Assembly: GCA_016841745.1 (NCBI GenBank)
Contig: JAENYO010000007.1
Coordinates: 9,408-73,407 of the forward strand
Source of the DNA: Acetomicrobium hydrogeniformans
GTDB lineage: Bacteria; Synergistota; Synergistia; Synergistales; JAFGMB01
Reading direction: 5' to 3'
Length of the DNA stretch: 64,000 bases
Position 1 is the first letter of the stretch. Every line of letters begins with the position of its first letter. The notes under the pieces were generated by a model. That model saw nothing but the letters and a program-made list of their open reading frames with translations. It did not search any database and was not told where the DNA came from. The position numbers and the translations under genes were made by a program. Positions 3,587 to 62,485 of this stretch are shown here, in pieces.

Positions 3587-5278
3587 ATGAAAAGATTTTC
3601 AGTTTTTCTTATGGTGTTAGTTCTGGTTCTGTCTCTTGGAACAGCGTGTGTGGCCAAGGATCATTCCCCTGTTGATGTAACAGCAAAGCAGGGCATGGTG
3701 GCAGCAGCCAACAGGCTTGCTTCAGAAGCTGGTATAGAGATACTCAAGCAGGGCGGGAACGCTGTTGATGCTGCAGTGGCAACAGCATTTGCGCTTAATG
3801 TGGTTGAGTCTAATGCTTCTGGTATCGGCGGTGGTGGTTTTATGCTTGTAAAGATGGCTGGTTCTGACAAGGTCATAGCTATTGACTACAGGGAAATGGC
3901 TCCAGCTGCAGCTACCAAAGATATGTATGCATCTGCAGAAGCAAAAGAAAAGAATCTCAGCAAATACAGTCCTTTTGCAGTGGGTGTTCCCGGAACTGTC
4001 GCGGGTCTGACATTTGCCCTTGAGCAGTACGGGACAATGACCCTGGCAGAGGTTATGGCTCCAGCTATCCGCTATGCTGAAGAGGGATTCCCTCTTGCTG
4101 AAGTTACAAGCGAGGCGGCCGAAAGTCATTTTGACACTCTCTCAGAACTTAATGATCTTTCCAAAGTAGTATTTTTCAAAGAAGGGCTTCCTGCGGAACC
4201 TGGTACTCTCATCAAACAGCCTGGCCTTGTAAAAGCTTTCAAACTTCTTGCCAGGGATGGAGCAAAGGCTTTTTATGAAGGACCCATAGGCGAGTCCATG
4301 GTAAATCGCATCCAGGAACTTGGCGGCAAAATGACCATGGAAGATCTCAAGAACTACACGGTTGCTCTCCGCGAGCCAGCAGAGGGAACATACAGGGATT
4401 ACCAGATCTATTCCATGTCTCCTCCTTCTTCCGGCGGAGTAACCCTCGTTGAGATCCTGAACATCCTCGAAAATTTCCCCCTTTCTAAATGGGGGCATAA
4501 TACTCCAAGAACAATGCACTATATGACCGAAGCCTTCAAGATGGCATTTGCTGACAGAAGTGCATTCCTGGGAGATCCTGACTTCCTTGATATCCCTCTT
4601 GAAGGTATGACTTCAAAAGAATATGCTAAGACCTTGGCAGCGAAGATAGATTCCTATAAAGCGATGCAGGAAATACCCACTGGAGACCCATCCATGTACG
4701 AGCATCATTCAACAACCCATACCTCTGTGGCAGATGTCCAGGGTAATCTTGTGGCTTTTACCCAGACAGTAAATTACTTCTTCGGTGCCAGTATTATTGA
4801 TCCTGAGTATGGATTTGTGTACAATAATGAAATGGACGATTTTTCAAAGAATCCAGCAAGTGTTAATGCTCCTGAACCTGGCAAACGTCCACTTTCTTCA
4901 ATGTCTCCCTCTATAGTTCTTGATCCGGAAGGGGTTCCCTTCCTTATCGCCGGAACTCCTGGAGCATGGAGAATCATCACTTCCATGGCCGAGATCATAA
5001 CGAATCTTGTTGACTTCGGAATGTCAATTGATGAAGCTATTGAGGCTCCCAGGTTTACCTGCCGGGCCATAGGAGGAAAACCCGATAATCTGCAGGTTGA
5101 ATCCAGGATTCCAGAGTCAACCCTGAGCTATCTTGCCTTCCGTGGGCATGACATAAAGGTCCGTAACGATTATGACCTGTATTTCGGAGGAGCTCAGGGT
5201 ATACTGTTTGACCCCCTGAACGATCTTCTTATGGGTGGAGCAGACTCCAGAAGAGATGGAGCTGCAGTAGGTTACTGA
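3587..5278 (+). CDS. ggt: gamma-glutamyltranspeptidase (GGT/CapD family), secreted, second paralog
   Basis: 563 aa with a signal peptide. Same GGT motifs, including the nucleophile region HSTTHTSVAD and PGKRPLSSMSPS. RBS GGGAGG. Confidence 0.9.
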   Translation: MKRFSVFLMVLVLVLSLGTACVAKDHSPVDVTAKQGMVAAANRLASEAGIEILKQGGNAVDAAVATAFALNVVESNASGIGGGGFMLVKMAGSDKVIAIDYREMAPAAATKDMYASAEAKEKNLSKYSPFAVGVPGTVAGLTFALEQYGTMTLAEVMAPAIRYAEEGFPLAEVTSEAAESHFDTLSELNDLSKVVFFKEGLPAEPGTLIKQPGLVKAFKLLARDGAKAFYEGPIGESMVNRIQELGGKMTMEDLKNYTVALREPAEGTYRDYQIYSMSPPSSGGVTLVEILNILENFPLSKWGHNTPRTMHYMTEAFKMAFADRSAFLGDPDFLDIPLEGMTSKEYAKTLAAKIDSYKAMQEIPTGDPSMYEHHSTTHTSVADVQGNLVAFTQTVNYFFGASIIDPEYGFVYNNEMDDFSKNPASVNAPEPGKRPLSSMSPSIVLDPEGVPFLIAGTPGAWRIITSMAEIITNLVDFGMSIDEAIEAPRFTCRAIGGKPDNLQVESRIPESTLSYLAFRGHDIKVRNDYDLYFGGAQGILFDPLNDLLMGGADSRRDGAAVGY

Positions 5279-5306
5279 TACTTAATTCAGTATTTCCCAA
5301 ATTGAC

Positions 5307-5341
5307 AAAAGGGACGGCCTGGAAAAGGCCGTCCCTTTTTA
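5307..5341 (+). terminator. rho-independent terminator
   Basis: aaaagggacggcc / ggccgtcccttttt hairpin followed by a T run. Confidence 0.7.
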
Positions 5342-5376
5342 AATTATGATAAGAAAAAGGTGTTAAAATCGTTTTC

Positions 5377-6369
5377 ATGAAAGTGAAGAAAGATTACCCT
5401 ATCAAAATAATGGTTACCGGTAGCAGAGGCAAAAGTTCTCTGGTAAGGCTTGTCCATTCAGCTCTTTTGGCAAATGGAATAAAGGCCTATGGAAGAATAA
5501 CCGGTGTTCTTCCCAGGGAACTGACGCCTGATGGACAAGTCCAGATCCTTCGTAGCAGCGGAGGTCATGTGGAGGAGATGAAATGGTGGTTTTCTTCTAT
5601 TCCCGAAGATGTTCAAGCCGTTGTGATGGAAAACAGTGCTGTTTCACCTGATCTCCAGTCCTTTGCCTCAAAATGGTTTTCTCCAGGGGTAACTCTTCTG
5701 TCAAATATCCATCCTGATCACCAGGAAGCATGGGGACCATACGAAATAGATGCTGCCCTTGCCCTTTCAGGGGGTATTGGGCCTGGGGCGAAGGTGATAT
5801 TGGGGCCTGGCCTTGAAAATAAAAAATTCCTGCTGGAGATCCTGGCCTTAAAGAACTGTAAAATAATGATATCCAGGTCGGGGAAAAATGGCCTGGACTT
5901 CAGGGAGAGGAACATCCTTACCGCATCCAGATTATGTGAGTTCCTTCACCTTGATATGGATCTAGCTGAAAGAGCTATGAGGAATACCCCTCCGGACATA
6001 GCAGATTTCAGAGTAATAAGTAGGATAAGCGGTGAACTTGCCTTTGCCTTCTCTGCCAATGATATTGAAAGTACCGGGGAATTATTCAGGCTCCTGGAGT
6101 GGCCATATGAAGAAACGATGGTTCTTTATAACCATAGGAGAGATAGATCCAGCAGGTTGAAGAGTTTTAAGAAGTGGATTCTGGACAATCCCTGGGGATC
6201 AATATGTATGACAGGGGATTATCCTTTTTTCCCATGGACTCTGAAATATTACAGGCGTTCTAAAAACTTGTCTGATCTTTTAACGGTCTCCAGCCTGGGG
6301 ATGCGGGTCTTTGGTTGCGGAAATGTGGCCGGTCTGCCCCTGGAGTTTGTTCTTGGAATGGAGGAATGA
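5377..6369 (+). CDS. pgsB: poly-gamma-glutamate synthase, Mur-ligase-like subunit (PgsB/CapB-like)
   Basis: P-loop GSRGKSS near the N-terminus. The pattern MENSAVSPDLQ ... SNIHPDH parallels Bacillus PgsB ECMAVNPDYQ ... NVLEDH, recalled from memory. It is directly followed by pgsC. Confidence 0.75.
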   Translation: MKVKKDYPIKIMVTGSRGKSSLVRLVHSALLANGIKAYGRITGVLPRELTPDGQVQILRSSGGHVEEMKWWFSSIPEDVQAVVMENSAVSPDLQSFASKWFSPGVTLLSNIHPDHQEAWGPYEIDAALALSGGIGPGAKVILGPGLENKKFLLEILALKNCKIMISRSGKNGLDFRERNILTASRLCEFLHLDMDLAERAMRNTPPDIADFRVISRISGELAFAFSANDIESTGELFRLLEWPYEETMVLYNHRRDRSSRLKSFKKWILDNPWGSICMTGDYPFFPWTLKYYRRSKNLSDLLTVSSLGMRVFGCGNVAGLPLEFVLGMEE

Positions 6370-6374
6370 CAGGA

Positions 6375-6812
6375 ATGTCCTATATGGAACTGTTCGTCCT
6401 GGGGGCAGGGATTTTCTGGGGTATGCTTTATTATCAGAAGACAGGGTGGTCCTGTGGAGGGATAATCACGCCAGGCTTAATAGCTGTAAACATTGCCTAT
6501 CCTGGAGCGATCATTTTTTCACTTCTTTCGGCTGTACTTATATCCATAGTGCTTGAAATAATCGTAAGGCTTTATTCTCTTTACGGGAGGCAGCGGATAG
6601 CACTCGCTATGCTTCTTGCTCTTCTGTTCAGGGGAGGAACTCTCAGGTTGTTTCCCTTCACTTCCCTTTGGATAGGGTGGGTCATTCCTGCTCTTATTGC
6701 TTCCGATATTCAAAAACAGGGACTGTTTAAAACACTTTCCGGAACCCTTTCCATCAGCATGGTTTCCCTCATGTCTGTAGAGTTGCTTCGTGATTTCATC
6801 ATGGTATTCTGA
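6375..6812 (+). CDS. pgsC: poly-gamma-glutamate synthase membrane subunit (PgsC/CapC-like)
   Basis: About 145-aa polytopic membrane protein. YGRQRIA and WVIPALIASDIQKQGL match Bacillus PgsC YGRRKFA and IIVPGLIANTIQKQGL. I chose the start at 6375, 9 nt after GGAGGA; the ORF track extends it to 6315. Confidence 0.85.
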   Translation: MSYMELFVLGAGIFWGMLYYQKTGWSCGGIITPGLIAVNIAYPGAIIFSLLSAVLISIVLEIIVRLYSLYGRQRIALAMLLALLFRGGTLRLFPFTSLWIGWVIPALIASDIQKQGLFKTLSGTLSISMVSLMSVELLRDFIMVF

Positions 6813-7899
6813 GCCTGGAATGGTTTGCAAAATGAAGAATACGAAATTACCATACCTTTATAAAAACAATCTGTTTATTCAAACTAATTCCTGGCTGCTG
6901 TACATTCTTACCCTTATCCTTCTTGTATTATGGTTTATTCCAGGGCGAACCATTCTGACTCCTGATGAAGACCGTTTATGGGAGAGGGTAAGAAGAGCCG
7001 AGGATTTTATTTATGAGTGGAGGGTTTCCAACCTTATGGAAACTGCCTCGGAATATGATCCATGGAAAACGGGACTCATAGGTCTTGAATGGAGTCCAAT
7101 CACTACCACACTAGGCAGTCTTCCCTCGAAAAGGACTGCAGGTGATCCCCGATGGTCTATTGTTGCCGGCAGGTGGTTTGAGAAGTTGGGACTTTCAGAA
7201 GGAGACAAAGTTGCCATATATTCTTCCGGTTCCTTTCCGGGCATGCTCCTTAATGTTCTCTGTGCCGCGGAGCAAAGGAATCTGGAAGTATTCCTTGCAG
7301 TTTCCCTTGGATCGTCCACGTGGGGAGCTAACAGACCGGACCTGTCCTGGCCTGAGATGGAGAGCCTTCTGAGAAAGGGTGGCTTTATCAGTACTGTTTC
7401 ATTTTTCTATACCCTCGGAGGCGGGGGTGAGAATGGTAATGGAATTCCGCCTGAAGGCCTGGATATCCTCGAAAGAGCAGCCGAAAAAGCTCAGGTCAGA
7501 ATAGTGAAGACAAATGATCTGGATGAAATGATCAGATTGAAACTTGACCTGCTGACAGCAAATAAGATAACAGTTCTGGTAAATATAGGAGGCTCTGCCT
7601 CTGCATTAGGGACAGACGAAAACATTTTAAAATTACCTGGAGGGCTTATACGCCCGTCAGAAAAGTCTAATGCAGGGAATGGAGTTATTGCGGGGGCATT
7701 ATCCCATAATATTCCTGTTATTCATTTCCTGAGCCTTAAAGATCTTGGGGAAAGAGTTGGTATTCCATTTGATTTGGAGCCGAGAAAGATGATTAACAAG
7801 AGGGAGAGCCCTTTCTTCTCGTTAACAGGTATTATCGTTTTTCTGCTGGCTATATTGAAATATAAACGATGGGGAAAGGACGATAATCTGTATGGTTGA
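6790..7899 (+). CDS. membrane-anchored poly-gamma-glutamate system protein (third component of non-Bacillus PGA loci)
   Basis: ORF immediately follows pgsC, with an N-terminal and a C-terminal TM segment and a large extracytoplasmic domain. The start is uncertain (ATG 6820 or 6832 also possible). Family call comes from gene context plus architecture. Confidence 0.55.
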   Translation: MISSWYSEPGMVCKMKNTKLPYLYKNNLFIQTNSWLLYILTLILLVLWFIPGRTILTPDEDRLWERVRRAEDFIYEWRVSNLMETASEYDPWKTGLIGLEWSPITTTLGSLPSKRTAGDPRWSIVAGRWFEKLGLSEGDKVAIYSSGSFPGMLLNVLCAAEQRNLEVFLAVSLGSSTWGANRPDLSWPEMESLLRKGGFISTVSFFYTLGGGGENGNGIPPEGLDILERAAEKAQVRIVKTNDLDEMIRLKLDLLTANKITVLVNIGGSASALGTDENILKLPGGLIRPSEKSNAGNGVIAGALSHNIPVIHFLSLKDLGERVGIPFDLEPRKMINKRESPFFSLTGIIVFLLAILKYKRWGKDDNLYG

Positions 7900-14233: not shown

Positions 14234-14289
14234 AGCCCGCAATCTGGAACACTTTAAGATCTTTCTCGTTTGAATATTGTAAAGGCAAT

Positions 14290-14541
14290 GAAACGGGACG
14301 TCTTAGGACATAATCGTTGACAGAGAAGGATATCCACCGGCTGAAAAATATCCTCAACGAGATCTTAAGGCATAAAGCCCGCGGAGCTGGAGCTGAAAGA
14401 GATTATTCGAAGTAAGCTTCCCGGGTCAGGTCTCCGTAAAAGGGCTTATAAGCGGGATATTCGTAGAATGTCCAAGCAGGGTGGTACCGCGAGATCATAT
14501 ATCAGAGACTCGTCCCTACAGTGGGATGAGTCTCTTTTTTT
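14290..14541 (+). promoter_or_regulatory. T-box leader (tRNA-sensing riboswitch), predicted Lys (AAA) specifier
   Basis: Stem I elements are CAGAGAAGG and CCGGCTGAAA. The specifier loop is TCTTAAGGCATAAAG, with AAA at 14374-14376 followed by a purine. Also present are the box GAAGTAAG, the F-box-like CCGTAA, and the T-box AGGGTGGTACCGCGAG (14478-14493). The terminator GAGACTCGTCCC/GGGATGAGTCTC plus a T-run runs to 14541. Confidence 0.8.
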
Positions 14542-14591: not shown

Positions 14592-15881
14592 ATGAAAAGA
14601 AAAAATAATCTGATCTTTGGAGGATGGGATGTAGTCGATCTGGCTTCCCGTTTTGGGACTCCTCTCTATGTCCTTTCAGAGGATGCGATAAGGGACCGGT
14701 GCAGGGAGGTTCAGTCCTGTTTCCTGAAAAAGTATGAAAATACCCATGCTGTCTATGCCAGCAAGGCTTTTCTTACCCTTGCCATGTGTCGCATTCTTGA
14801 AACTGAGGGAATTGGGCTTGATGTTGTTTCGGGAGGAGAGATATACACGGCTGCAAAAGCAGGATTTTCCATGGAAAAACTGATTTTCCATGGAAATAAC
14901 AAATCACCTGATGAACTCAGGTTAGCCCTTGAAAAGGGTGTTGGCAGAATAGTAGTAGACAGTGAGAATGAATATGACATCCTCGAAGGGATAGCAGAAG
15001 AAGTGGAGAGTGAGGCAGATATCCTTTTTAGGGTTGCTCCTGGAGTGGATGCCCATACCCATAAATACATCGCTACGGGACACACCGCTTCCAAATTTGG
15101 CATGCCTGTACTGGGAGATGGAATAACAAGGATTGTCGAGAGGGCAATGACTTCCAGGTTCCTCCATCTCAAGGGGTTCCATTTTCATGTAGGTTCACAA
15201 CTGAAAGATAACATGTCTCATCTTATGGCAGTCAATGTCCTTCTGGATCTGATATCCAATGTCAGGGACAGGTCTGGTTTTCTGACTGAGGAACTTAATG
15301 TGGGAGGTGGTTTTGGAGTCCCCGAGTTACCTGGTGAAGATCCGGTAAAGCTTTCTGATTTTATAGATCCCGTAATGGAGAGGATCATCTCTGGGTGTGA
15401 AGATAGAGGTTTGAGAATACCCCAGACTATCATAGAACCTGGACGGTGGATAGTATCCGAAGCCGGTATTACCTTATATTCTATAGGTTTACTCAAGGAA
15501 ATTCCTGGCGTCATTACCTATGTTAGTGTAGACGGCGGGATGACTGATAACCCCAGGCCGGCACTCTATGGAGCGCTTTATCATGGGGTAGTGGCCAACA
15601 GAATGGATGAAAAAGCTTCCATGAAAGTGTCAGTTGTAGGAAAATGTTGTGAATCGGGGGATGTGCTGATCCGCGACCTTGAAATCCCTTCAATCAAACC
15701 CGGGGATATTCTGGCTGTTTTTAACACTGGAGCATATAATTTTTCCATGGCCAGTAATTATAATCGGAATCCCCGTCCGGGATTGATCCTGGTAAGTGAA
15801 GGAAAGGCTGATATCATAGTGGAAAGACAAACTTATGAAGATCTCCTTAGAGGAGAAACAATTCCTGAACATCTTAAATAA
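14592..15881 (+). CDS. lysA: diaminopimelate decarboxylase
   Basis: 429 aa. Fold-type III PLP decarboxylase motifs include YASKAF, HFHVGSQ, GGGFG and CESGD. RBS GGGAGG. Confidence 0.95.
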   Translation: MKRKNNLIFGGWDVVDLASRFGTPLYVLSEDAIRDRCREVQSCFLKKYENTHAVYASKAFLTLAMCRILETEGIGLDVVSGGEIYTAAKAGFSMEKLIFHGNNKSPDELRLALEKGVGRIVVDSENEYDILEGIAEEVESEADILFRVAPGVDAHTHKYIATGHTASKFGMPVLGDGITRIVERAMTSRFLHLKGFHFHVGSQLKDNMSHLMAVNVLLDLISNVRDRSGFLTEELNVGGGFGVPELPGEDPVKLSDFIDPVMERIISGCEDRGLRIPQTIIEPGRWIVSEAGITLYSIGLLKEIPGVITYVSVDGGMTDNPRPALYGALYHGVVANRMDEKASMKVSVVGKCCESGDVLIRDLEIPSIKPGDILAVFNTGAYNFSMASNYNRNPRPGLILVSEGKADIIVERQTYEDLLRGETIPEHLK

Positions 15882-15933
15882 TTTATCGAGCTTTAAATAT
15901 TTATTTAATTCAAAACAGGGGGGAAAAGAGATA

Positions 15934-17586
15934 ATGAGTGAAAAAACTAATCATCGTGTTATTGTTTTTTCTATGGCTGTCTGTATTGTTCTTGTTTTTG
16001 CGGGAATGTGTCTGGGAGCAGAAGGAGATATGCCGAATTTCGGGGTTCTCTCTTTACTGCCTCCACTTCTGGCAATAGGCCTGTGTATCATTACCAAGGA
16101 AGTGATACCTTCTCTTTTCGTCGGTATATGGGTTGCAGGGACCATGCTTGCAGGCTGGAACCCGATCCTGGGCTTTGGTAAAGCGGTAGAATCACTTTGG
16201 AACAGTCTTGGCGACCCATGGGGAGCCCGGATCGTACTTACAAGTCTTACCATGGGTGGACTTGTCGGTGTCATGAAGGTGGGGGGAGGTATTGATGCCG
16301 CAATACAGTGGATAACCGGAAGGGTCAAAAGTCCAAGGGGAGCCATGTTTTTCACAGAACTTGCAGGTTTTATAATTTTCTTTGAGGATTATGTCAACAC
16401 GGCAGTTGTAGGAACCACTATGTCACCTATTACTGACCGGTACAGGATATCAAAGGAAAAACTTTCCTATATAGTTGATACAACTGCAGCACCTATTGCA
16501 TGTATTGCCGGTATTTCTTCATGGATAGCCTATATGGTGGGACAGATAGGCAGCCAGTTCAATGAACTCGGTATAACTGTCTCTCCATACGTTACTTATC
16601 TGAAATCCATCCCCTTCGTTCTCTATAACATCGTGGCCCTTGTCCTTCTTACTTACGTCGTCTTTTCCCAGAGGGATTTTGGTCCCATGCTTACCGCTGA
16701 AAGACGGGCCAGGAAGACTGGTAAAGTCCTTCGTGACGGGGCCCAACCCCTTGTCAATACAAACGTGGAGGGAACTATTGCTGATAAGAATTGCCCCAGG
16801 AGAGGTATCAATTTTGTTCTTCCAATAGTATTTCTCGTTTCACTCATCTTCCTGATGCTTATCATTACCGGAGGGTGGCCAGAGGTACCTGTAGCCACAG
16901 CAATAGGCGAAGGCAGTAGCTCCAAGGCCCTTGTCTGGGGCGCCTTTGGTTCTGTATTTCTTACCATAGCTCTGTATGGTGTACAGGGGCTCGCTTCAAC
17001 CCAGAAACTGTTTAAGGGATATATGGAAGGCATGATGTCCATATTTGTTGGCACCATAATACTTGTCTTTGCCTGGGGGATAGGATCTTCCATAAAACAG
17101 GTGGGTACTGCGGCATACATTGTCAGCATTGCAGGAGATATCCTTTCTCCGGGTTGGATACCTGTTATAACCTTTATTACCGGAGCGATAATATCCTTCT
17201 GTACAGGTACATCCTACGGAACAATGGGTATCCTGATGCCCATTGTTGTGCCTCTGGTCTACAAGGTTTCCCAGGGTGCAGGTATAGACCCCATGATGTT
17301 CATGATCCCAACCATTGGAGCGGTCTTTGCTGGAGCTGTCTGGGGGGACCACTGCAGTCCCATTTCCGATACCACCATCATGTCTTCCATGTTCAGCGGA
17401 GCTGACCACATGGATCATGTAAACACCCAGATACCATATGCTCTTACTGCAGCAGCAGGTGCCCTCGTGGGATATATAGGGGTAGCAATGGGGCTCCCTG
17501 CAATTGCCAATATTGCCATATCAGCAGTTGTGGCCTGTTTTATCTTCAGGATCATATCCAGGCCTATCGAAGTTTCTGTACCCTGA
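15934..17586 (+). CDS. NhaC-family membrane transporter (LysW-like candidate lysine transporter)
   Basis: Polytopic membrane protein of the Na+/H+ antiporter NhaC type. It lies downstream of lysA in the same T-box-controlled unit. I chose the start at ATG 15934 after GGGGGGA; the ORF track starts at 15835, inside lysA. Confidence 0.75.
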   Translation: MSEKTNHRVIVFSMAVCIVLVFAGMCLGAEGDMPNFGVLSLLPPLLAIGLCIITKEVIPSLFVGIWVAGTMLAGWNPILGFGKAVESLWNSLGDPWGARIVLTSLTMGGLVGVMKVGGGIDAAIQWITGRVKSPRGAMFFTELAGFIIFFEDYVNTAVVGTTMSPITDRYRISKEKLSYIVDTTAAPIACIAGISSWIAYMVGQIGSQFNELGITVSPYVTYLKSIPFVLYNIVALVLLTYVVFSQRDFGPMLTAERRARKTGKVLRDGAQPLVNTNVEGTIADKNCPRRGINFVLPIVFLVSLIFLMLIITGGWPEVPVATAIGEGSSSKALVWGAFGSVFLTIALYGVQGLASTQKLFKGYMEGMMSIFVGTIILVFAWGIGSSIKQVGTAAYIVSIAGDILSPGWIPVITFITGAIISFCTGTSYGTMGILMPIVVPLVYKVSQGAGIDPMMFMIPTIGAVFAGAVWGDHCSPISDTTIMSSMFSGADHMDHVNTQIPYALTAAAGALVGYIGVAMGLPAIANIAISAVVACFIFRIISRPIEVSVP

Positions 17587-53904: not shown

Positions 53905-55230
53905 TCAACCCAGGATGGCAACTGGTATATCTTCCCATCTTGTGGTGTAGAAGGGAGATCTGAAGGCACTCTGCATTGTCCAATTCTGTTGAATTCCTGC
54001 TGAAGCAAGTCTGATACTGTTCTTTCCGTATTTTCTGTTAATCTTGTCAGTTGCATTCATGAGCCTTTCATGTTTTTCATTCAAATTGCCCGTTTCAAAG
54101 AGTCCAAGTTGGAGTTTGTTATCCTGAATAATACCTGAAAGGATAACTCCTGATTTTTTATAAGTGTACCCGGTACGGTATATTCTGCTCAGAATTTCGC
54201 AGGATCTTCTAACTATAAGAGGAGTATAGGATGTAGGCGTTACTAGGTTTATAGTGGCAATATTATGATATTGGGGGTCATTCCTGAAGGGATTGGTCTG
54301 CAGGAAAACGGATATCCGGGCTGCACACGACCTCTGTTCTCTCAGTTTTTCAGCGGCCCTGCTGGCGTATTCCGTTACCGATTCCACAAGTTCTTCAAAT
54401 TTTTTTACCTGTCTACCAAAAGATCTTGAAACAATGATCTGTTTTTTGGGAGATAAGGTGTCCTTGATGGATATACAGGAAATTCCTCTCAATTCCCATA
54501 CAGTCCTTAATCCTTCTATGGTCATATGTTTTCTTACCCAATCATCAGAAGCGTATTTAAGTTTACATGCATCTGAAATTCCATTAAAAAAAAGTTTCCT
54601 GGAATAGGCTTTACCTACTCCCCATATATGTTCCACGTCTATTCTTTCCAGCATTTTATCTACATCCGGATGGTTGCTAAGATCACATACTCCATTGAAA
54701 AGGGGATATCTCTTTGCCAATCCGTTTGCCCCTTTAGCAAGGGTTTTTGTTGGTCCTATACCTATGGAAACGGGAATTCCTGTCCATCTTTTTACCTTCT
54801 GCCGGATATCCCGGGCATATTTATCCAGGTTGAACCGGGACATGGTACTAAGACGCAGAAAAGCCTCATCTATGGAATATACTTCCACCTCCGGGCATCT
54901 TTCAGCCAGTATGTCCATGACCCTTTGAGACATGTTGTCGTATAGGGTATAGTTGGAGGAATAGGCTACGACATCGTTTTTCTCAAAGAGGTCCCTGCAT
55001 CTGAAAGCCGGTTCTCCCATCTTTATACCGAGAGCCTTGGCTTCTTCGGATCGTGCTATAATGCAGCCATCATTGTTGGAGAGTACGACGACGGCTTTTC
55101 TTTCTATGACTGGGTTGAAAACCCTTTCGCAGGATACATAAAAATTATTACAGTCTACCAGCGCAAATATTTCATTTCTGGATTCCTTTATCTTTTTGAG
55201 GGATGTATTATCCATGCTATTACCCCCCAT
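53905..55230 (-). CDS. umuC: Y-family DNA polymerase (UmuC/DinB-like)
   Basis: N-terminal ALVDCNNFYVSCE, SNNDGC, and SIDEAFL motifs. 441 aa. It overlaps the upstream umuD-like gene. Confidence 0.85.
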   Translation of the reverse strand: MGGNSMDNTSLKKIKESRNEIFALVDCNNFYVSCERVFNPVIERKAVVVLSNNDGCIIARSEEAKALGIKMGEPAFRCRDLFEKNDVVAYSSNYTLYDNMSQRVMDILAERCPEVEVYSIDEAFLRLSTMSRFNLDKYARDIRQKVKRWTGIPVSIGIGPTKTLAKGANGLAKRYPLFNGVCDLSNHPDVDKMLERIDVEHIWGVGKAYSRKLFFNGISDACKLKYASDDWVRKHMTIEGLRTVWELRGISCISIKDTLSPKKQIIVSRSFGRQVKKFEELVESVTEYASRAAEKLREQRSCAARISVFLQTNPFRNDPQYHNIATINLVTPTSYTPLIVRRSCEILSRIYRTGYTYKKSGVILSGIIQDNKLQLGLFETGNLNEKHERLMNATDKINRKYGKNSIRLASAGIQQNWTMQSAFRSPFYTTRWEDIPVAILG

Positions 55231-55529
55231 AGAGAGTTTACATGATATGCTGCGGGATCAGCAGATAGTCGGGAAAAGAGCTCTATTGTCAGTTTCTCAC
55301 TGGAACAGGAAACCACAAGGTCTCCTTCTTTCGGTGTAAGGCTTCGGTCTACTATCAGGATGTCCCCTTCGTAAATACCAGTAATATCACTGTATTCACC
55401 AACTGCCTTCAGAAAAAAGGTAGCAGAAGGATTGCTTATAAGAAGATCGTCAAGATCGAGTTTTTTCTCCCTGAAATCATTTGCAGGAGAAGGGAATCCG
55501 CTTGTTATCATTTTTTGCACACAACCCAT
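55188..55529 (-). CDS. umuD: UmuD-like S24-fold protein (apparently non-cleavable, UmuD-prime-like)
   Basis: GFPSPANDF...LDLDDLLISNPSATFFLKAVG...GDILIVDR aligns with E. coli UmuD residues ~25-90, from memory. It lacks the N-terminal arm. Confidence 0.7.
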   Translation of the reverse strand: MGCVQKMITSGFPSPANDFREKKLDLDDLLISNPSATFFLKAVGEYSDITGIYEGDILIVDRSLTPKEGDLVVSCSSEKLTIELFSRLSADPAAYHVNSLWGVIAWIIHPSKR

Positions 55530-55639: not shown

Positions 55640-56734
55640 TTAAAAATCTATCCTTGAAAGGATATCGTCAATTTCCTGGAAGGTTATATTGAGGGGGGGG
55701 AGAAACCTTATCCCGCCACTGGTGACATTAAGAAGAACTTTTTCTTCGAAGGCTCTTTTTTTTACCATGTCCGGGTTTTCCGTACCGGCTCCTATCATGA
55801 GACCCCTTTCCCTTACCTCTGTTACCCATTTAAGTTTCGAAAGGCCCTCTGATAAATATTTACCCTTTCTCCGAACTTCCTCTAGAAAGACAGAGGTAAT
55901 TTTTGAAAGAAAAACCATGCCAGCTGATACTGCAATCGGGTTTGGTGCAAAGGTTGATCCGTGGTCTCCCATATCAAAAGGGGCAAAATTCAGAAAAATA
56001 GTTGCTCCAAGAGGCAGTCCCCCTCCAATAGACTTACCTATGGTAATAATATCGGGTTCCAGGCCATAACCCTGGTAGGAGAAATAGTTTCCTGTTCGTC
56101 CCAGTCCGGCCTGTATTTCGTCAGTAACAAGGATAAATCCCTTTTCTTTATGGAGTTCCATGACCGTTTGGGCAAGGTCATGGGGAATCGGAAGAACTCC
56201 GCTGTTACCCTGGATACACTCAAGAAAAAGGCCGGAAATAGTATTTTCTGATGCAAATTTACGTAAGGCATTTTCGTCAAGAGGAAGAAATACTGTATCG
56301 GGAAGAAGGGGTTCAAAGGGTAACCTGATCTTTTCACTATGGGTTATGGATAAAGCACCTGTGGTTCTCCCGTGGAAATTACCTTTAAAAGATACTATTT
56401 TCCCCTTCTTCCTGCACTTTTTTATGGCCTTTAATGCGGCTTCCGTTGCTTCAGTTCCGGAGTTTGAAAAATATACACAACCCTGCCCTCCGCTGAAATT
56501 CAGAAGGGTCTGAGCCATTACTGGAACCTCAGGATCGAGAAAGTAGTTTGAAAGGTGAGCATATTTCCTCACCTTGGAAACTATTGCCTCTACTACTTCA
56601 GGGTATGAGTGTCCCAGGTTCATTACACCAATACCGGCAAAGGTATCGAGAAATATTCCTTTATCGGTATGGATCCGTATTCCCTCGGCTTTTTCCACGG
56701 TAAGATCATAGGGAGAGTATATCTTTGCCTCCAT
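55640..56734 (-). CDS. class III PLP aminotransferase (ArgD-like; candidate N-acetyl-LL-DAP aminotransferase)
   Basis: Motifs SGTEATEAALK, DEIQAGLGRTG and TFAPNP are present. It is the last gene of the dap operon, with a TAATG overlap with lysC. Confidence 0.75.
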   Translation of the reverse strand: MEAKIYSPYDLTVEKAEGIRIHTDKGIFLDTFAGIGVMNLGHSYPEVVEAIVSKVRKYAHLSNYFLDPEVPVMAQTLLNFSGGQGCVYFSNSGTEATEAALKAIKKCRKKGKIVSFKGNFHGRTTGALSITHSEKIRLPFEPLLPDTVFLPLDENALRKFASENTISGLFLECIQGNSGVLPIPHDLAQTVMELHKEKGFILVTDEIQAGLGRTGNYFSYQGYGLEPDIITIGKSIGGGLPLGATIFLNFAPFDMGDHGSTFAPNPIAVSAGMVFLSKITSVFLEEVRRKGKYLSEGLSKLKWVTEVRERGLMIGAGTENPDMVKKRAFEEKVLLNVTSGGIRFLPPLNITFQEIDDILSRIDF

Positions 56735-57948
56735 TAATCTGCCTCCAGTAAACCGAATTCTTCTGCAAGAACTTTCACTGCTTTTTCTGATTCATCCTTA
56801 TGAAGCAGAACGGATATTTTGATTTCCGAGGTAGTAGTGGCAAGCATTTTTATTTTATCTTTACTGAGGGCTCCGAAAAACCTGCCAGCTACGCCCGGTG
56901 TTGACTGCATCCCAACTCCTACTACGGCTAGTTTGACGACATCCTCATTTGTACCGAATTTCCATCCTTCTATACCTTTAAGGGTCTCATTGAGAGTTTT
57001 TCGGACAATTTCATAGTTTCCGGAAATAAAGGTGAAGGTCAGGTGAGAATGCCCGTTATCGTTGACTGCCGATATCATATCCACATTAACCTCATTCGCA
57101 GCAAGATCGATAAATATTCGGCTGATAAGGCCAGTATCGTTGGGAATATTACTCAGAGTCACCTTCATCTGGTTGGGGTCAGTTGTTATTCCTGTAACAA
57201 CGGGTTGCTCGAGCCATTCGGGTATATTGTTCACCAGGTAAGTCCCCCTTTCTTCTGAAAATGTTGATGCACAATACGTTTTCACGGAATACTTCTTCGC
57301 GATCTCAACTGCCCGGGAATGGAGGACTCTGGCTCCGGATGAGGCCAGTTCCAGCATTTCATCATAGGTTATATATTCAAGTTTTCGAGCTGAGTGCTCA
57401 ACCCGGGGGTCACAGCTGTATACTCCAGCCACATCACTGTAAATTTCGCATGAAGTGCCCATTTTTGCCGCAATTGCTACAGCCGAGGTATCAGATCCCC
57501 CCCTGCCTAGAGTTGTTATCTGACCTTCGTCAGTAATACCCTGAAATCCGGTTACTACTACAACGTCGTGTGTTTCAAGTTCCCGTTGTAACTTTGAGAG
57601 CTTAAGATCCTTGATCCTGGCGTTATTATGGGTTTTAGTAGTAACCATCTCAAGTTGAAAAGCATTGTAGGATATGGCAGGGACTCCAGTCCCGTTCAGA
57701 GCCATTGATAAAAGAGAAGCAGAAACCTGCTCTCCAGTGGATAGCAGCATATCCATCTCTCTTTCCTTGGGGTTTCCCGATATGGAATATGCAAGATCGA
57801 TCAGCTGATTAGTTGACTCACCCATTGCTGATACAACAACTACAAGCTTTTCTCCCTGTTGAACCCTTACTTTTATCTTTTCAGCTATATTCCGGATCTT
57901 TTCAGGAGTTGCCATGGAAGATCCGCCATACTTCTGGACAATCAACAA
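56734..57948 (-). CDS. lysC: aspartate kinase
   Basis: N-terminal IVQKYGGSS, TLGRGGSD and C-terminal ACT repeats. 404 aa. Confidence 0.9.
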   Translation of the reverse strand: MLIVQKYGGSSMATPEKIRNIAEKIKVRVQQGEKLVVVVSAMGESTNQLIDLAYSISGNPKEREMDMLLSTGEQVSASLLSMALNGTGVPAISYNAFQLEMVTTKTHNNARIKDLKLSKLQRELETHDVVVVTGFQGITDEGQITTLGRGGSDTSAVAIAAKMGTSCEIYSDVAGVYSCDPRVEHSARKLEYITYDEMLELASSGARVLHSRAVEIAKKYSVKTYCASTFSEERGTYLVNNIPEWLEQPVVTGITTDPNQMKVTLSNIPNDTGLISRIFIDLAANEVNVDMISAVNDNGHSHLTFTFISGNYEIVRKTLNETLKGIEGWKFGTNEDVVKLAVVGVGMQSTPGVAGRFFGALSKDKIKMLATTTSEIKISVLLHKDESEKAVKVLAEEFGLLEAD

Positions 57949-58010
57949 GAACCACCTCTTGGTCTGTTTGCTGGAGGCCCTATTCGACCTCCAGCGCAGC
58001 GATATGGAGA

Positions 58011-58709
58011 TTAAAGATTTCTAAGGTCTTTGACTATCTGTGTTTTATCTGAAGTCTTTGCGTCGACCTCTTTGATCACTTTGGCCGGTGATCCAGCTAC
58101 CACACTGTATTCCGGAACATCTTTTGTTACGATGGCTCCAGCAGCAACAACAGAACCCTTTTTGACTCTGACACCCTCAAGTATCACCGCATTGGCACCA
58201 ACGAGAACATTATCTTCTATTACCACAGGCTGAGCGCTGGGAGGCTCTATTACTCCTGCCACAACAGCACCGGCACCTATGTGACAGTTGCGGCCTATCA
58301 TGGCTCTACCGCCCAGGACGGCATTCATGTCGATCATGGTGCCTTCCCCTATGACACTGCCGATATTTATAACTGCCCCCATCATTATCACAGCACCCTT
58401 ACCTATTTCCACCATATCTCTTATGATCGCGCCTGGCTCAATGCGGGCCTCATATTTAGTCAGATCGGCAAGGGGAAGAGCTGAATTTCTGGCCTGTACC
58501 TGGATGTCCACTTTATCGATGGAATCAGAAAATCTTTCTAGAAGGAATACGATTTTCTGGTAATCTCCGGTCAGGAGTCCGAATGTCTCCGTACCCATAA
58601 AATCCAGTCCATCCCAGTCTATCTCTTTGAGGTTCCCCTGTATGAATACCCTTGCGGATGTCTTTTTTTCTGCTTGACTTATCATTCTGATTATTTCTTC
58701 AGCTCGCAC
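58011..58709 (-). CDS. dapH: tetrahydrodipicolinate N-acetyltransferase (DapH-type hexapeptide transferase)
   Basis: 232 aa. The N-terminal domain resembles B. subtilis DapH, followed by left-handed beta-helix hexapeptide repeats. GTG start. Confidence 0.8.
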
Positions 58710-59341
58710 GAAAGAACCTCCTCAAAAGAATAGAATCCCCTTTTTCTCTGGCTTACGAATTCTGCAGCCTTAAGTGCTCCAAGGGCAAAAACCCTTCTGG
58801 AGAGAGCCCTGTGAGTGAATTCAATAACCTCACCCTCATTGGCAAAAAGAACAGAGTGATCTCCAGGGATCCCCCCAAGTCTGAGGGAAGAAATGCTGCA
58901 ATCTCTGCCTGTTGCATCTTTGAGGAGAATAGCTGTTCCTGAAGGCGCATCCTTCTTCATTATATGGTGACTCTCTGTCATTTCCATGTCCCAATTCTCC
59001 AGGTAAGTGGAATATTCCCGAAGGATCATCTTTAAAATATTGATCCCCATGGAAAAATTGAAGCTCTGAACCACTGAAACGGTTTTTCCCAGTTCCCTCA
59101 GCATCCCAAGTTGTTCTCCGGAAAGGGCAGTGGTGCCAATGACCAGTCCTGAATGGTTTTCGCGGCATAATTCAATTGTTCTCGGTGTGACAGCGCAGGA
59201 TGAAAAATCCACAATAACATCGGGTGAGCTGTCCAGCCACTCTTTTTCTTTGTCCAATGTCAGGCTGAGCATATGGTTTCTAAAAACAGACTGAATTTCA
59301 AGTCCCATCCTTCCCGATGAGCCTATGAGACCGTATTTCAC
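58691..59341 (-). CDS. dapB: 4-hydroxy-tetrahydrodipicolinate reductase
   Basis: [10 protein letters not shown] dinucleotide motif and [15 protein letters not shown] signature. I chose the start at GTG 59341, which overlaps the dapA stop as GTGA. Confidence 0.85.
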
Positions 59342-60222
59342 TTTGTAACACCACACTCGGTCATGGCCGCTTCGATCTTTTCCATGGCTGTTCCTGATGC
59401 AGGAACAAGGGGGAGTCTCAGTATATTTTCACAGAATCCAAGACGGCTCACTGCATATTTGACAGGGATAGGATTTGTTTCAACAAAAAGATCTCTCATG
59501 AGCGGGAAGAGATCCATATGCAGTTCTCTTCCTCTTGTAATATCACCTTCAAGGGTCGCGTTTATCATTGCGGAAGTTTCAGCGGGCATAACGTTTGAAA
59601 GGACTGATATTACTCCGTCACCTCCACTGCAGACCAGGTGGAATGCCTGATCGTCATTTCCTGAAAAAATCCGGAAATCAGGTCTGGTCTTTCTGATCTT
59701 CCGTATCAGGAGATCTACCTGGATCATGTCCCCGGAGGCTTCCTTTACTGCGACGATATTATCGATCTCGGAACATCTGACCACTGTATCCGGAAGTATA
59801 TTACTACCGGTTCTTCCTGGTACGTTATAAATGATGAGAGGGCCCTTTATGTTTTCTGCTACTGCTCTGTAATGCTGGAAAAGGCCTTCCTGGGTGGGCT
59901 TATTGTAATAGGGAGTGACTACCAGTACTCCATCTGCACCCAGGTCCAGTGCCTGTCCGGACATTTCGATAGTATGGTTTGTCGAATTAGATCCAGTTCC
60001 CACTATTATGGGAACTCTTTTTCTGGCTGTCTTTACTGCAAAGGAGATGATATCCGCTCTCTCTGAAGTGGTAATGGTGGGAGCTTCGCCTGTCGTACCA
60101 AGAACGATAAGTGCATTTACACCATTCCCGATCTGGAAATTAATGAATCTCTCCATGTTTTCAAAGTCAACTTCTGTCCCCTTAAAGGGAGTTACGATAG
60201 CAGTTCCTGTTCCTCTGAACAT
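59338..60222 (-). CDS. dapA: 4-hydroxy-tetrahydrodipicolinate synthase
   Basis: [21 protein letters not shown] and the active-site KEAS region. 294 aa. Confidence 0.9.
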
Positions 60223-60276
60223 TGATTGTTCCTCCTTTTCTCGATTTAACCAATAATCTTTTGATGGAACATTTAT

Positions 60277-61251
60277 CTAAGCAGGGTTATTGAGACGAAG
60301 ATGTTCTTTGAGTATCCTGACTGCATTAGTAGCTGCACCTACTCTTATGTTATCAGCAATATTCCACATCAGGAACCTCCTGTTGTCAAATGTTCTTACC
60401 CTTGATACGTAGGTCAGATCTGTTCCCGCTACCTCCAGAGGAGTTATCATTTCTTCGGAAAGAACAACATCTTCACTATTTCTTAAGGCCTCATGTATTT
60501 CCTCAAGTTCAAAGGGGTCACGGGTTTCTACAAAGATCGATTCTGAATGTCCATATTCGACGGGAACCCTTATAGTAGTAGGCCATATTGAAATGTTACC
60601 GTCATCAAGTATCTTGCGTGTTTCATCTACCATTTTCATTTCTTCAGTACTGAAACCATCAGCCATGATATCTCCTATCTGCGGGACAAGGTTTCTATGG
60701 ATCTGCTTAATGAATGCAGACGATTCTATGTTGCCTTTTTCCTGAAATTCCAGTTCAATTATGCCCTTTCTTCCCGCTCCGGAAACTGCCTGATAGGTGC
60801 TTACGACAATTGTTCTTATACCGAATCTTTCATGGATCCTGTAAAGTGAAAGGACCATCTGTATGGTGGAGCAGTTTGGATTTGCAACAATCCCCCTGTA
60901 TCCCCTTAGCAGATTCCCGTTTATTTCAGGAACTACCAGGGGAACATCCTGATCCATTCTAAAAGCAGAGGAATTGTCGATCACTACAGACCCGGCTTTC
61001 GCTGCAATCGGTGCGAATCTCCTTGATGCTGATCCTCCGGCTGAAAACAGCACATAGTCAAACCCTTCCTTCAGGATTTCTTCCGTCAATTCCTTAACCC
61101 TGTAATTCTTGCCATTAAAGAGGATTTCCTTCCCTTCAGAACGGGCTGAGGCCAGAAAAGCTATTTGCGAAGGGAGGATCCCCATCTCCTGAAGAACCTG
61201 CGACATCATTCTACCCACTTCTCCCGTTGCACCTGCCACTGCTATTCTCAT
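60277..61251 (-). CDS. asd: aspartate-semialdehyde dehydrogenase
   Basis: MRIAVAGATGEVG, the NPNCSTI active site and the SGAG motif. 324 aa. Confidence 0.9.
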   Translation of the reverse strand: MRIAVAGATGEVGRMMSQVLQEMGILPSQIAFLASARSEGKEILFNGKNYRVKELTEEILKEGFDYVLFSAGGSASRRFAPIAAKAGSVVIDNSSAFRMDQDVPLVVPEINGNLLRGYRGIVANPNCSTIQMVLSLYRIHERFGIRTIVVSTYQAVSGAGRKGIIELEFQEKGNIESSAFIKQIHRNLVPQIGDIMADGFSTEEMKMVDETRKILDDGNISIWPTTIRVPVEYGHSESIFVETRDPFELEEIHEALRNSEDVVLSEEMITPLEVAGTDLTYVSRVRTFDNRRFLMWNIADNIRVGAATNAVRILKEHLRLNNPA

Positions 61252-61271
61252 AACTCATATCAGCTCCTTAT

Positions 61272-61552
61272 AAAAATAAAGACCCGTCCCTGTGAAGGGA
61301 CGAGTCTGGATAAACTCGCGGTACCACCCGACTTGAATTTCTGAAGAACCAGAAATTCCGCTTTGAGCCCTTTAACGGAGGCTGAACCGGGATCTTACTT
61401 CAGGAGTTTTGAATCCCTTTCAGAACCAGCTCCACAGGTTTTGGGCCTTCAGATAACATCGGGGACCCCTTTCAGCCGGTGAGTATCCCTCTCTGTCGAT
61501 GTTTACAACCTTTCAAGCGCCCTGCTTCTTCGCTTTTCCTATTATTATTACT
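61272..61552 (-). promoter_or_regulatory. T-box leader, promoter-distal copy (adjacent to asd), predicted Lys (AAA) specifier
   Basis: On the minus strand: CAGAGAGGG, CCGGCUGAAA, and specifier loop UCUGAAGGCCCAAAA with AAA at 61442-61440 plus a purine. Also GAAGUAAG, F-box CCGUUA and T-box GGGUGGUACCGCG (61329-61317). The terminator is AGACUCGUCCC/GGGACGGGUCU plus a U-run. Confidence 0.8.
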
Positions 61553-61819
61553 AAAAAAAGGCCCGTCCCTGTGAAGGGACGAGCCTGGATAAACTCGCGG
61601 TACCACCCGACTTGAATTTCTGAAAAACCAGAAATTCCGCTTTGAGCCCTTTAACGGAGGCTGAACCGGGATCTTACTCAGGGAGTTTGAAATCCCTTTC
61701 AGAACCAGCTCCACAGGTTTTAGGCCTTCAGATAACATCGGGGACCCCTTTCAGCCGGTGAGCATCCCTCTCTGTCGATGTTTACAACCTTTCAAGCGCC
61801 CTGCTTCTTCGCTTTTGGT
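61281..61819 (-). repeat. direct tandem duplication (2 x ~260 nt, 279-nt period) comprising the two T-box leaders
   Basis: Manual alignment of 61281-61539 with 61560-61818 shows about seven differences, including a compensatory pair in the terminator stem. Confidence 0.85.
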
Positions 61820-61855
61820 AGTGTTCAATAACTGACAAGATACAGAATTCAATTT
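61553..61855 (-). promoter_or_regulatory. T-box leader, promoter-proximal copy, predicted Lys (AAA) specifier
   Basis: Same element set, shifted by 279 nt. AAA is at 61721-61719 and the T-box at 61608-61596. The terminator AGGCUCGUCCC/GGGACGGGCCU is followed by UUUUUUU. Confidence 0.8.
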
Positions 61856-61861
61856 TCGGAA

Positions 61862-61890
61862 ATTATAAAAGAGTTAGACCTTTTTGTCAA
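61862..61890 (-). promoter_or_regulatory. sigma70-type promoter of the asd-dap-lysC operon
   Basis: On the minus strand: TTGACA (61890-61885), a 17-nt spacer, then TATAAT (61867-61862). Confidence 0.5.
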
Positions 61891-61936
61891 CCTGGTTACT
61901 ATATTTTTTTCAGAAATAGCTCTATCGTTCATATAT

Positions 61937-62485
61937 CTATACGTATTTCCTTATCATATCCAATCCTTTCCTGTACTTCGGCGGGATATTTTCTGAAGCC
62001 GGATATCCCAGGCTGAGCAGAAGATCTATCTTTATATTTCCTTTAAGTCCCAGCTGTTTTTTTACTGACCCTTCATTGAACCAGCCAAACCAGCATGTAC
62101 CCAAACCCATTTCTGTTGCCTGAAGAGAAATATGCTCACATGCGATTCCTATATCCAGAAGGCTGAACTGGACTCCTCTGAAAAGGCCTCCAAGTCTTGC
62201 TGTATATTTTGATGGTTCCGTTATAACTGTAATTATTACTGGTGCTGTTCTGGCAAAGGCGTTCATGGAAAAGGCTCCTGAAAATGCTGTTTCTGCTAGA
62301 GGTATGCTTTTTTCATATCCCATGGATATCATAAAGAACCACGGTTGAGAATTACAGGCAGAAGGTGCAAATTGTGCTGCTTCCATGCATTTTTCAACCA
62401 TTTCTTTGGGTACTTCCCTGTGGATGTATTTTCGGACGCTGTATCTATGTTTCACGAGATCCGTGAAATCCATTATTTTATCCAA
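61937..62485 (-). CDS. nitroreductase-family protein
   Basis: 182 aa. RYSVRKY near the N-terminus, APSACNSQPW, and C-terminal LGYP are typical of the NADH oxidase/flavin reductase nitroreductase fold. Confidence 0.8.
   Translation of the reverse strand: MDKIMDFTDLVKHRYSVRKYIHREVPKEMVEKCMEAAQFAPSACNSQPWFFMISMGYEKSIPLAETAFSGAFSMNAFARTAPVIITVITEPSKYTARLGGLFRGVQFSLLDIGIACEHISLQATEMGLGTCWFGWFNEGSVKKQLGLKGNIKIDLLLSLGYPASENIPPKYRKGLDMIRKYV

Follow-up and report, generated by a model that had tools for sequence, protein, structure and literature searches.

We analyzed a 64,000-nucleotide stretch of DNA from Acetomicrobium hydrogeniformans (contig JAENYO010000007.1; here called the window) and found that the leader of its lysine operon, asd-dapA-dapB-dapH-lysC, very probably holds a series of two complete transcriptional T-box riboswitches that share specificity for tRNA-Lys and are read through one after the other (probability of this joint reading, about 0.88). 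The anatomy of the leader, the conservation and covariation of its structure, its Lys specifier, the content of the regulon, and the distribution of the tandem arrangement are observations on the sequences themselves; how the RNA would respond to tRNA is predicted from them.

Two T-box units in series upstream of asd

The leader lies on the minus strand, as do all its features given below. A sigma-70-type promoter at 61862-61890 (TTGACA at 61890-61885, a 17-nucleotide [nt] spacer, and TATAAT at 61867-61862) matches the consensus at 12 of 12 positions, as an initial annotation made from the letters of the window had stated, and the same promoter (TTGACAAAAAG...TATAAT) is also kept in three related loci (L081, L082, and L086). 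About 45 nt past it begins the first of two repeat units of 279 nt, arranged head to tail (Tandem Repeats Finder: period of 279 nt, 1.9 copies, 96% matches, zero indels). In a sensitive scan of 61150-62000, both units matched the T-box covariance model RF00230 over model positions 1-219: copy 1 at 61572-61818 (62.4 bits; E = 4.7e-13), which extends from Stem I as far as the 3' strand of the antiterminator, and copy 2 at 61293-61539 (62.0 bits; E = 6e-13). The family profile scored them at 285 and 278 bits, respectively. The leader thereby presents two full units of the same specificity, each a sensor with its terminator, behind a single promoter-like site, and the two full-length matches together with the repeat period bear out the earlier claim of two complete T-boxes spaced by 279 nt.

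Both copies contain AGAGA, the GGCUGA distal loop, AAA followed by A, Stem II with GAAA...AGUA, Stem III, the F-box CCGUUA, GGGUGGUACCGCG, a 12-bp terminator, and a U-run, in agreement with the inventory of Stem I motifs, AAA plus purine, F-box, GGGUGGUACCGCG, and own terminator with U-run that had initially been given for each copy. In copy 1, Stem I (61708-61812) comprises a kink-turn region, a covarying lower helix, the AGAGA bulge, and the GGCUGA distal loop; the specifier AAA occupies 61721-61719 and is followed by the conserved purine A at 61718, as placed by the sequence and by the frame test described below. The corresponding bases of copy 2 are AAA at 61442-61440 and A at 61439, located from the sequence and from alignments A1 and A4. 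The copy 1 antiterminator (61576-61608) carries the 7-nt bulge UGGUACC, with UGGU at 61605-61602, and folds at -10.6 kcal/mol; that of copy 2 (61297-61329; UGGU at 61326-61323) folds at -11.1 kcal/mol. Neither copy lacks a foldable antiterminator, a defect that the initial annotation had named as evidence against itself. The antiterminator 3' strand of copy 1 is overlapped by an intrinsic terminator (61552-61586) with a stem at 61586-61559 of 12 pairs, 8 of them G-C (-22.1 kcal/mol), followed by UUUUUUU. The copy 2 terminator (61271-61307) has a stem of 12 pairs at 61307-61280 (-20.0 kcal/mol) followed by UUUAUUUUU.

The structure was derived by hand and its pairs were counted on a 47-sequence alignment of family members (A4), covering Stems I, II, IIA, the IIB pseudoknot, Stem III, and the antiterminator or terminator. 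Standard pairs occupied 89.7% of cells, compared to 35 to 50% when the 3' partners were slid by 1 to 3 columns, and 38 of the 52 pairs showed changes on both sides. The covariation score of 0.518 (0.07 to 0.16 for the slid versions) was reached by none of 500 shuffles. Antiterminator helices A1 and A2 were paired in 100% and 99% of the family, and the terminator stem was paired at 94.9%, with compensatory changes; helices 6 to 10 of Stems II, IIA, IIB, and III were paired at 83 to 92%, with both-side changes at most pairs. The F-box core CGU.A, AGAGA, and GGCUGA were invariant, and in the tandem genomes each copy's antiterminator, 7-nt bulge included, folded at about -10.5 kcal/mol, with all terminators folding as well. 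The lysine riboswitch (L-box; RF00168) had no match in the window at its gathering score of 30 bits, and the sensitive scan of 61150-62000 likewise gave none at E <= 10.

Three smaller features of the leader were also noted. An 88-amino-acid open reading frame (ORF) at 61472-61738 was judged spurious, since it crosses both repeats and the first terminator and is uncalled in L081 and L082; between the two units, no ORF was called in the relatives. An out-of-frame ATG at 61256-61258 follows the AAGGAG ribosome-binding site (RBS) by 5 nt and precedes the start of asd (61251) by 7 nt. It would begin a 15-codon ORF that overlaps the first bases of asd, and L081 has a similar out-of-frame ATG. Lastly, in the minimum-free-energy fold of the copy 2 platform, the terminator 3' side and U-run (61271-61290) pair with AUAAGGAG at 61261-61270, the RBS region; this modeled pairing hints at a possible additional occlusion of the RBS.

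The Lys specifier and the predicted mechanism

The 3' strand of the specifier loop reads GAA-GGC-C-(U/C)-AAA-A-CCUGU. It belongs to a compact 2x6 loop (3' strand N-N-AAR-R) closed above by a covarying 4-bp helix; in copy 1, the loop is formed by 61716-61731 and 61796-61800, and a GAA/GA internal loop lies one helix higher. The position of the codon was fixed by the lower Stem I helix, which has the AAR plus purine directly on its 5' side, is 94% paired in the 47 sequences, and uses six pair types at a single pair; compensatory versions include GCAGG/CCUGU, CCUGG/CCAGG, and ACAAG/CUUGU. Read in this register, frame 0 alone gives one amino acid across the whole family (AAA in 35 and AAG in 12 of 47), while the neighboring frames give stop/Gln, Lys/Arg, or Asn/Ser/Gly. 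The frame test ruled out the Asn reading (AAC, frame +2) and the frame +1 reading. In leaders retrieved through Asd homology, AAAA-C or AAAG-C beside the lower helix is invariant, with AAGG-C in Pyramidobacter, which amounts to a synonymous Lys-to-Lys change. These leaders contributed 13 T-boxes found through the protein and not through a sequence pattern, with AAA as specifier in 12 and AAG in 1, and their antiterminator bulge is UGGU in 13 of 13, implying a discriminator A (A73) on the cognate tRNA. Bacterial tRNA-Lys has an A73 discriminator.

A competing codon is suggested by the sequence itself. Both copies read UGAA-GGC-C, so that a naive rule taking the codon straight after the S-turn GAA would pick GGC, and the leaders would sense tRNA-Gly. 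To this reading we give practically no credence. The GGC place is unconserved, with AGC, UGC, or GGG in relatives, and its bases sit in a covarying helix (pair 28/101 is G-C in 35 and C-G in 11 sequences; 46, 45, and 44 of 47 paired). The base 3' of GGC is C and not a purine, and UGGU suits a discriminator A, not Gly; bacterial tRNA-Gly has U73. Furthermore, the genes downstream are lysine genes, and orthologous operons carry an L-box at the same place. An extra GGC/GCC helix that would put the codon in a one-sided bulge (columns 25-27 with 100-102) was also considered and dropped, because only 32, 28, and 43 of 47 sequences paired, compared to 46, 45, 44, and 37 of 47 for the helix 28-31/98-101. 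A Lys specifier, AAA followed by a purine, is strongly supported by these comparisons: the Lys assignment of the initial annotation holds on covariation, the frame test, the change from AAA to AAG in relatives, the UGGU bulge, the Lys T-box on lysA, the gene content downstream, and the replacement of the L-box.

Given this specificity, transcription from one strong promoter would enter both units, and in each the Stem I specifier AAA would pair with the anticodon of tRNA-Lys. The NCCA end, free in an uncharged tRNA, would pair with the UGGU bulge, the last U matching discriminator A73. This pairing is predicted to stabilize the antiterminator (about -10.5 kcal/mol), which would otherwise be outcompeted by the overlapping terminator (-20 to -22 kcal/mol). 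RNA polymerase would face two such checkpoints, so that read-through to asd would approximate the product of two probabilities, and serial units would give lower basal expression and a steeper response to falling tRNA-Lys charging than one unit. The operon would then supply aspartate semialdehyde, diaminopimelate (DAP), and lysine precursors, with lysA and a putative transporter under a separate single T-box. In this scheme, binding of the tRNA, antitermination, and the form of the response are predictions. Because each unit has a separate terminator, a multiplicative read-through is expected and not the true cooperativity that the initial annotation had predicted; serial independent termination, or pseudo-cooperativity as described for tandem riboswitches (PMC9481103), seems the likelier mode.

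Several points weigh against reading the leader as two tRNA-Lys T-boxes. Both copies score 62 bits, under the RF00230 gathering score of 93 bits, and a default Rfam scan of the whole 64-kb window returned no RNA family at gathering thresholds. Such a scan would have led us to reject the T-boxes wrongly, and the E-value mode was required; the copies are clearly T-boxes by E-value, full-length coverage, and motifs, though not by Rfam's own threshold. The covariance-model check proposed in the initial annotation succeeded in that sense only. The specifier loop is non-canonical (2x6 and not the AGUA/GAA-NNN-R loop of the model, against which cmscan aligns its bases as insertions), and the details of tRNA docking may differ. 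No tRNA gene, that for tRNA-Lys included, was present in the 64-kb window or in 23 fetched loci. Specificity for tRNA-Lys may also be imperfect, by analogy with the Lys (AAA) T-box of Bacillus cereus, which responds partly to tRNA-Asn (PMC2916919). In 44 further loci retrieved by a metagenome scan, the search pattern (AGAGA, GCUGA, AARR-C..G..GAGC, CAAG..GGGUGGUA) itself required AAR and UGGU, so their invariance there is not independent evidence. Finally, shutting down the DAP branch at plentiful lysine seems risky if the cell wall needs DAP: asd, dapA, and dapB of the operon are the only copies seen in the window, and since tight repression at high lysine would also cut DAP, basal read-through or other genes must supply it. 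The same question of DAP supply holds for the L-box operons of Thermotogota.

Distribution and evolution of the two copies

Relatives of the leader were sought through Asd. In a reference-genome search, the closest protein among the matches listed was only 50% identical; a large protein collection contained relatives at 77 to 94%, followed by Aminobacteriaceae, Synergistaceae, Aminobacterium, Kosmotoga, and Mesotoga at 64 to 69%. IlvD of the window, at 88% identity to a Synergistales metagenome-assembled genome and 74 to 76% to Synergistaceae, Aminobacteriaceae, and Aminivibrio, likewise assigns the bacterium to Synergistales. Two T-boxes precede asd in L081 and L082 (Asd identity of 92 to 93%) and in L086 (77%). 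One T-box precedes it in L087 (66%), in the Aminobacterium locus L089 (67%), and in the Aminobacteriaceae locus L094 (68%). In the Pyramidobacter locus L093 (61%), one T-box is accompanied by a second antiterminator/terminator module without Stem I. In a family-wide search with an nhmmer profile, the window, L081, L082, and L086 were the only loci with two full units; ten loci of the AAG group had a partial second module, and all others had one unit. The partial tandems (L093 at 4836-4917, L096, L097, L105, L108, L110, L114, L124, L134, and L135) occur on asd and lysA leaders of a Pyramidobacter-like group, where the module without Stem I sits about 40 nt after a full T-box. On these sequences, the full tandem is confined to a small clade of Synergistales.

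At the same place in two Thermotogota, an unrelated sensor is found. The Kosmotoga olearia locus (L091; Asd identity of 67%) carries a lysine riboswitch at 4743-4917 (RF00168; 96.4 bits) and the Mesotoga locus (L092; 64%) one at 4755-4921 (82 bits), each ahead of an operon in the order asd-dapF-dapA-dapB-dapH-lysC-aminotransferase. L-box operons of Thermotogota have already been described (PMC5584792, PMC3766115). The two RNAs at one position place an orthologous operon under free lysine in Thermotogota and under a T-box in Synergistota.

One could ask whether the repeat is an artifact of assembly. Short-read (Logan) contigs with Asd identities of 79 to 92% do break inside the leader, starting in its last part, which covers 1-42 of L083, 1-110 of L084, and 3-59 of L085. 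The same architecture, however, is present in four independent assemblies with different sequences, one of them a 2.9-Mb contig, and the copies of the window differ at 11 positions between unique flanks. We therefore regard an artifact as exceedingly improbable. The breaks fit a tandem repeat, and tandem T-boxes may for that reason be undercounted in assemblies of this kind.

The differences between the copies were then placed on the structure. In alignment A1, the two copies of the window differ at 11 core columns, which corrects the count of "about seven" in the initial annotation. The compensatory exchange in the terminator stem to which it had drawn attention is real (A1 columns 247/270; G-C in copy 1, A-U in copy 2). 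Eight of the 11 columns fall outside pairs, even though paired positions make up 45% of the total, and across the four tandem genomes all pair-changing differences between paralogous copies (9/9) keep a standard pair. Differences that avoid or preserve pairs suggest that both copies are under structural selection, an argument that is inconclusive by itself since gene conversion could preserve a passenger copy.

One such passenger scenario is that a single copy works, while its partner arose by a recent duplication, is selectively neutral, and has had no time to decay. The 96% identity of the copies, the fact that most relatives manage with a single T-box, and the possibility that gene conversion alone keeps a passenger copy intact would all suit it. 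However, the tandem is present in four assemblies spanning Asd identities of 77 to 100%, the window, L081, and L082 share a copy-specific U-tract state, all differences at paired positions keep the pair (including the double change from G-C to A-U), and each copy retains all conserved motifs and a stable terminator. We consider a neutral duplicate improbable. The persistence of the tandem to 77% Asd identity and the nine pair-changing differences that leave a standard pair argue that both copies are under selection for structure, in keeping with the initial proposal that both are kept functional.

Comparison across genomes indicated that the copies do not evolve separately. Identity between copies within a genome was 94 to 99%, and between orthologous copies it was 93 to 94% (window versus L081) or 77 to 79% (window versus L086). 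Quartet sites grouping the copies by genome numbered 10 to 51 per genome pair, compared to 0 or 1 grouping orthologous copies; the single site of the latter kind (A4 column 340) belongs to the U-tract, where the unit ends on its 3' side, and is common to the window, L081, and L082. These three also have in common the inter-copy junction UUUUU-AGUAAUAA(U/C)AGG-AAAAGCG. A shared junction and U-tract state combined with genome-specific interiors point to one older duplication followed by homogenization, and the copy-specific U-tract state places that duplication before the split of the three. Concerted evolution would be the simplest account of the copies in the window, L081, and L082.

The alternative is that the tandem arose independently in each lineage by repeated recent duplications. 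It draws on the quartet ratios (by genome versus by copy, 12:1, 15:1, 44:0, 10:1, 50:0, and 51:0), on the different periods of 279, 274, and 285 nt, and on the differing junction sequence of L086. Since the window, L081, and L082 share both the junction and the U-tract difference while their interiors are genome-specific, we find this alternative unlikely overall, though it keeps some weight beside one old duplication with gene conversion. The L086 tandem may be either an independent duplication or a product of the same one.

The lysine regulon and known systems

Within the operon (55640-61251, minus strand), asd (61251-60277), dapA (60222-59338), dapB (59356-58691), dapH of the acetyltransferase type (DapD_Ac; 58709-58011), and the aspartate kinase gene lysC (57948-56734) are each identified by an NCBIfam equivalog above its cut-off; an ArgD-family aminotransferase gene (56734-55640) is the sole member without one. 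The gene order is the same in L081 to L087. A second Lys leader is found on the plus strand, where a single T-box at 14279-14541 (RF00230 match at 14279-14520; 78 bits; E = 3.5e-15) precedes lysA (14592-15881; TIGR01048; 448.6 bits) and a gene for an NhaC-family transporter (15835-17586), which may be a lysine transporter. This T-box fits the family pattern, with the specifier AAA at 14374-14376 followed by G at 14377, a terminator at 14504-14535 plus U-run, and its own promoter-like TTGACA...TATAAT. A lysA and nhaC-like pair behind a Lys T-box also occurs in L131. The genome probably holds a small Lys T-box regulon of graded stringency, with a double unit on the asd operon and a single one on lysA. 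All three T-boxes of the window (14279-14520, 61293-61539, and 61572-61818) score 62 to 78 bits, under the gathering score, and standard pipelines will consequently miss the regulon.

The gene content behind the 44 metagenomic T-boxes was not imposed by the pattern and provides a separate view of what they regulate. Four of the 44 contigs end before any ORF. In the 40 readable loci, the first gene is asd (18), dapA (4), lysC (1), or lysA (4), for a total of 27; the locus that starts with lysC continues with dapA, dapB, and DAP dehydrogenase. Seven of the 40 (L099 at 4419-7849, L100, L104, L118, L122, L132, and L119) start with lysX, an argC-like reductase, [LysW]-aminoadipate kinase, and an aminotransferase, i.e., the aminoadipate route to lysine. 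Lysine genes of the DAP or LysW pathway thus lie behind 34 of the 40 readable T-boxes, and a few other loci begin with transporter components. The LysW-type loci indicate putative T-box control of the aminoadipate/LysW pathway in uncultured bacteria. As the T-box stands before both DAP genes and non-homologous LysW genes, its type tracks lysine supply across unrelated enzymes.

Compared to the transcriptional T-box as modeled in RF00230 (e.g., Bacillus subtilis tyrS), all domains are present and covary here, including the AGAGA bulge, the distal loop, the F-box, GGGUGGUACCGCG with its 7-nt bulge, and the overlapping terminator. The family differs in its sub-gathering score, its compact 2x6 loop (NN-AAR-R), and its phylum, Synergistota and not Bacillota. 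Known Lys T-boxes reside on lysK/lysS, where they control a lysyl-tRNA synthetase (LysRS) paralogue, in B. cereus, B. thuringiensis, C. beijerinckii, and S. thermophilum (PMC2916919), and on the lysine permease gene BH0807 of B. halodurans (PMC2494555); here, in contrast, they precede the lysine/DAP operon and lysA. The initial annotation had called control by tRNA-Lys unusual, and the database TBDB agrees, with Lys specifiers in just 170 of 23,535 T-boxes (AAA in 148, AAG in 22; PMC7778990). AAA is preferred and AAG is the minority there as here (148 versus 22 and 35 versus 12). In the searchable literature, neither asd-dap-lysC nor lysA is described as having a Lys T-box, although older T-box surveys may list one, and on T-boxes in Synergistota it has only the statement that riboswitches are enriched in that phylum.

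Tandem T-boxes are known (PMC7583486), and double T-boxes occur on several amino acid operons of Bacillota (PMC9413887, PMC12452182). As here, they consist of two complete units of the same specificity, each with a terminator, and partial tandems occur in the present family too; unlike them, the window's pair is specific for Lys, serves a lysine operon, belongs to Synergistota, and has documented concerted evolution of its copies. Tandem riboswitches for thiamine pyrophosphate or S-adenosylmethionine (PMC9481103) likewise place two complete switches in series, each with a terminator, with a steeper dose-response predicted. Their ligands are metabolites, whereas here the ligand is tRNA, and because T-boxes are "on" switches, the read-through probabilities would multiply. 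The lysine riboswitch of Thermotogota shares with the tandem its position, the orthologous operon (Asd identity of 64 to 67%), and the regulatory goal. It senses free lysine and the T-box senses tRNA-Lys charging, and the two RNAs have no homology.

Three aspects are worth recording: an exchange of sensors, L-box and T-box, between orthologous operons, copies that evolve in concert, and a regulon missed by the Rfam threshold. A broader reading, on which we are evenly divided, joins them. It holds that Synergistota possess a distinct sub-threshold T-box subclass with a 2x6 loop that would have come to control the entire lysine regulon (the DAP operon, lysA, and transporters and, elsewhere, the LysW/aminoadipate genes), replacing the L-box seen in Thermotogota. 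In the same reading, a duplication in one Synergistales clade produced copies that are kept near-identical by gene conversion, both under structural selection. If true, the leader would be a natural pair of tRNA sensors in tandem, giving switch-like regulation to a pathway on which the cell wall also draws. Apart from that reading, Lys-specifier T-boxes, which are among the rarest, are here predicted to govern two unrelated routes to lysine, in a phylum beyond the one classically known for T-boxes. The natural swap of L-box and T-box on the same operon allows two ways of sensing lysine supply to be compared cleanly. How tandem T-boxes act is named among the open questions of the field (PMC7583486); single, partial-tandem, and full-tandem leaders, together with a single lysA T-box in the same genome, constitute a system for direct tests. 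Homogenization of the copies is a small, concrete addition to how tandem riboswitches are maintained.

Two observations concern the neighborhoods of these T-boxes. Directly downstream of the lysine operon lies a pair of a umuD-like gene (Peptidase_S24) and umuC (53905-55529, minus strand; 11738-12975 in L081), the latter encoding a subunit of translesion polymerase V; synteny of the pair is kept in L081, L082, L084, L085, and L087. In an Aminobacteriaceae-like lineage (L094 at 5971-6909, L103, L125, L128, and L130), a Lys T-box precedes asd and a gene for a membrane protein of the auxin-efflux-carrier family, without dap genes.

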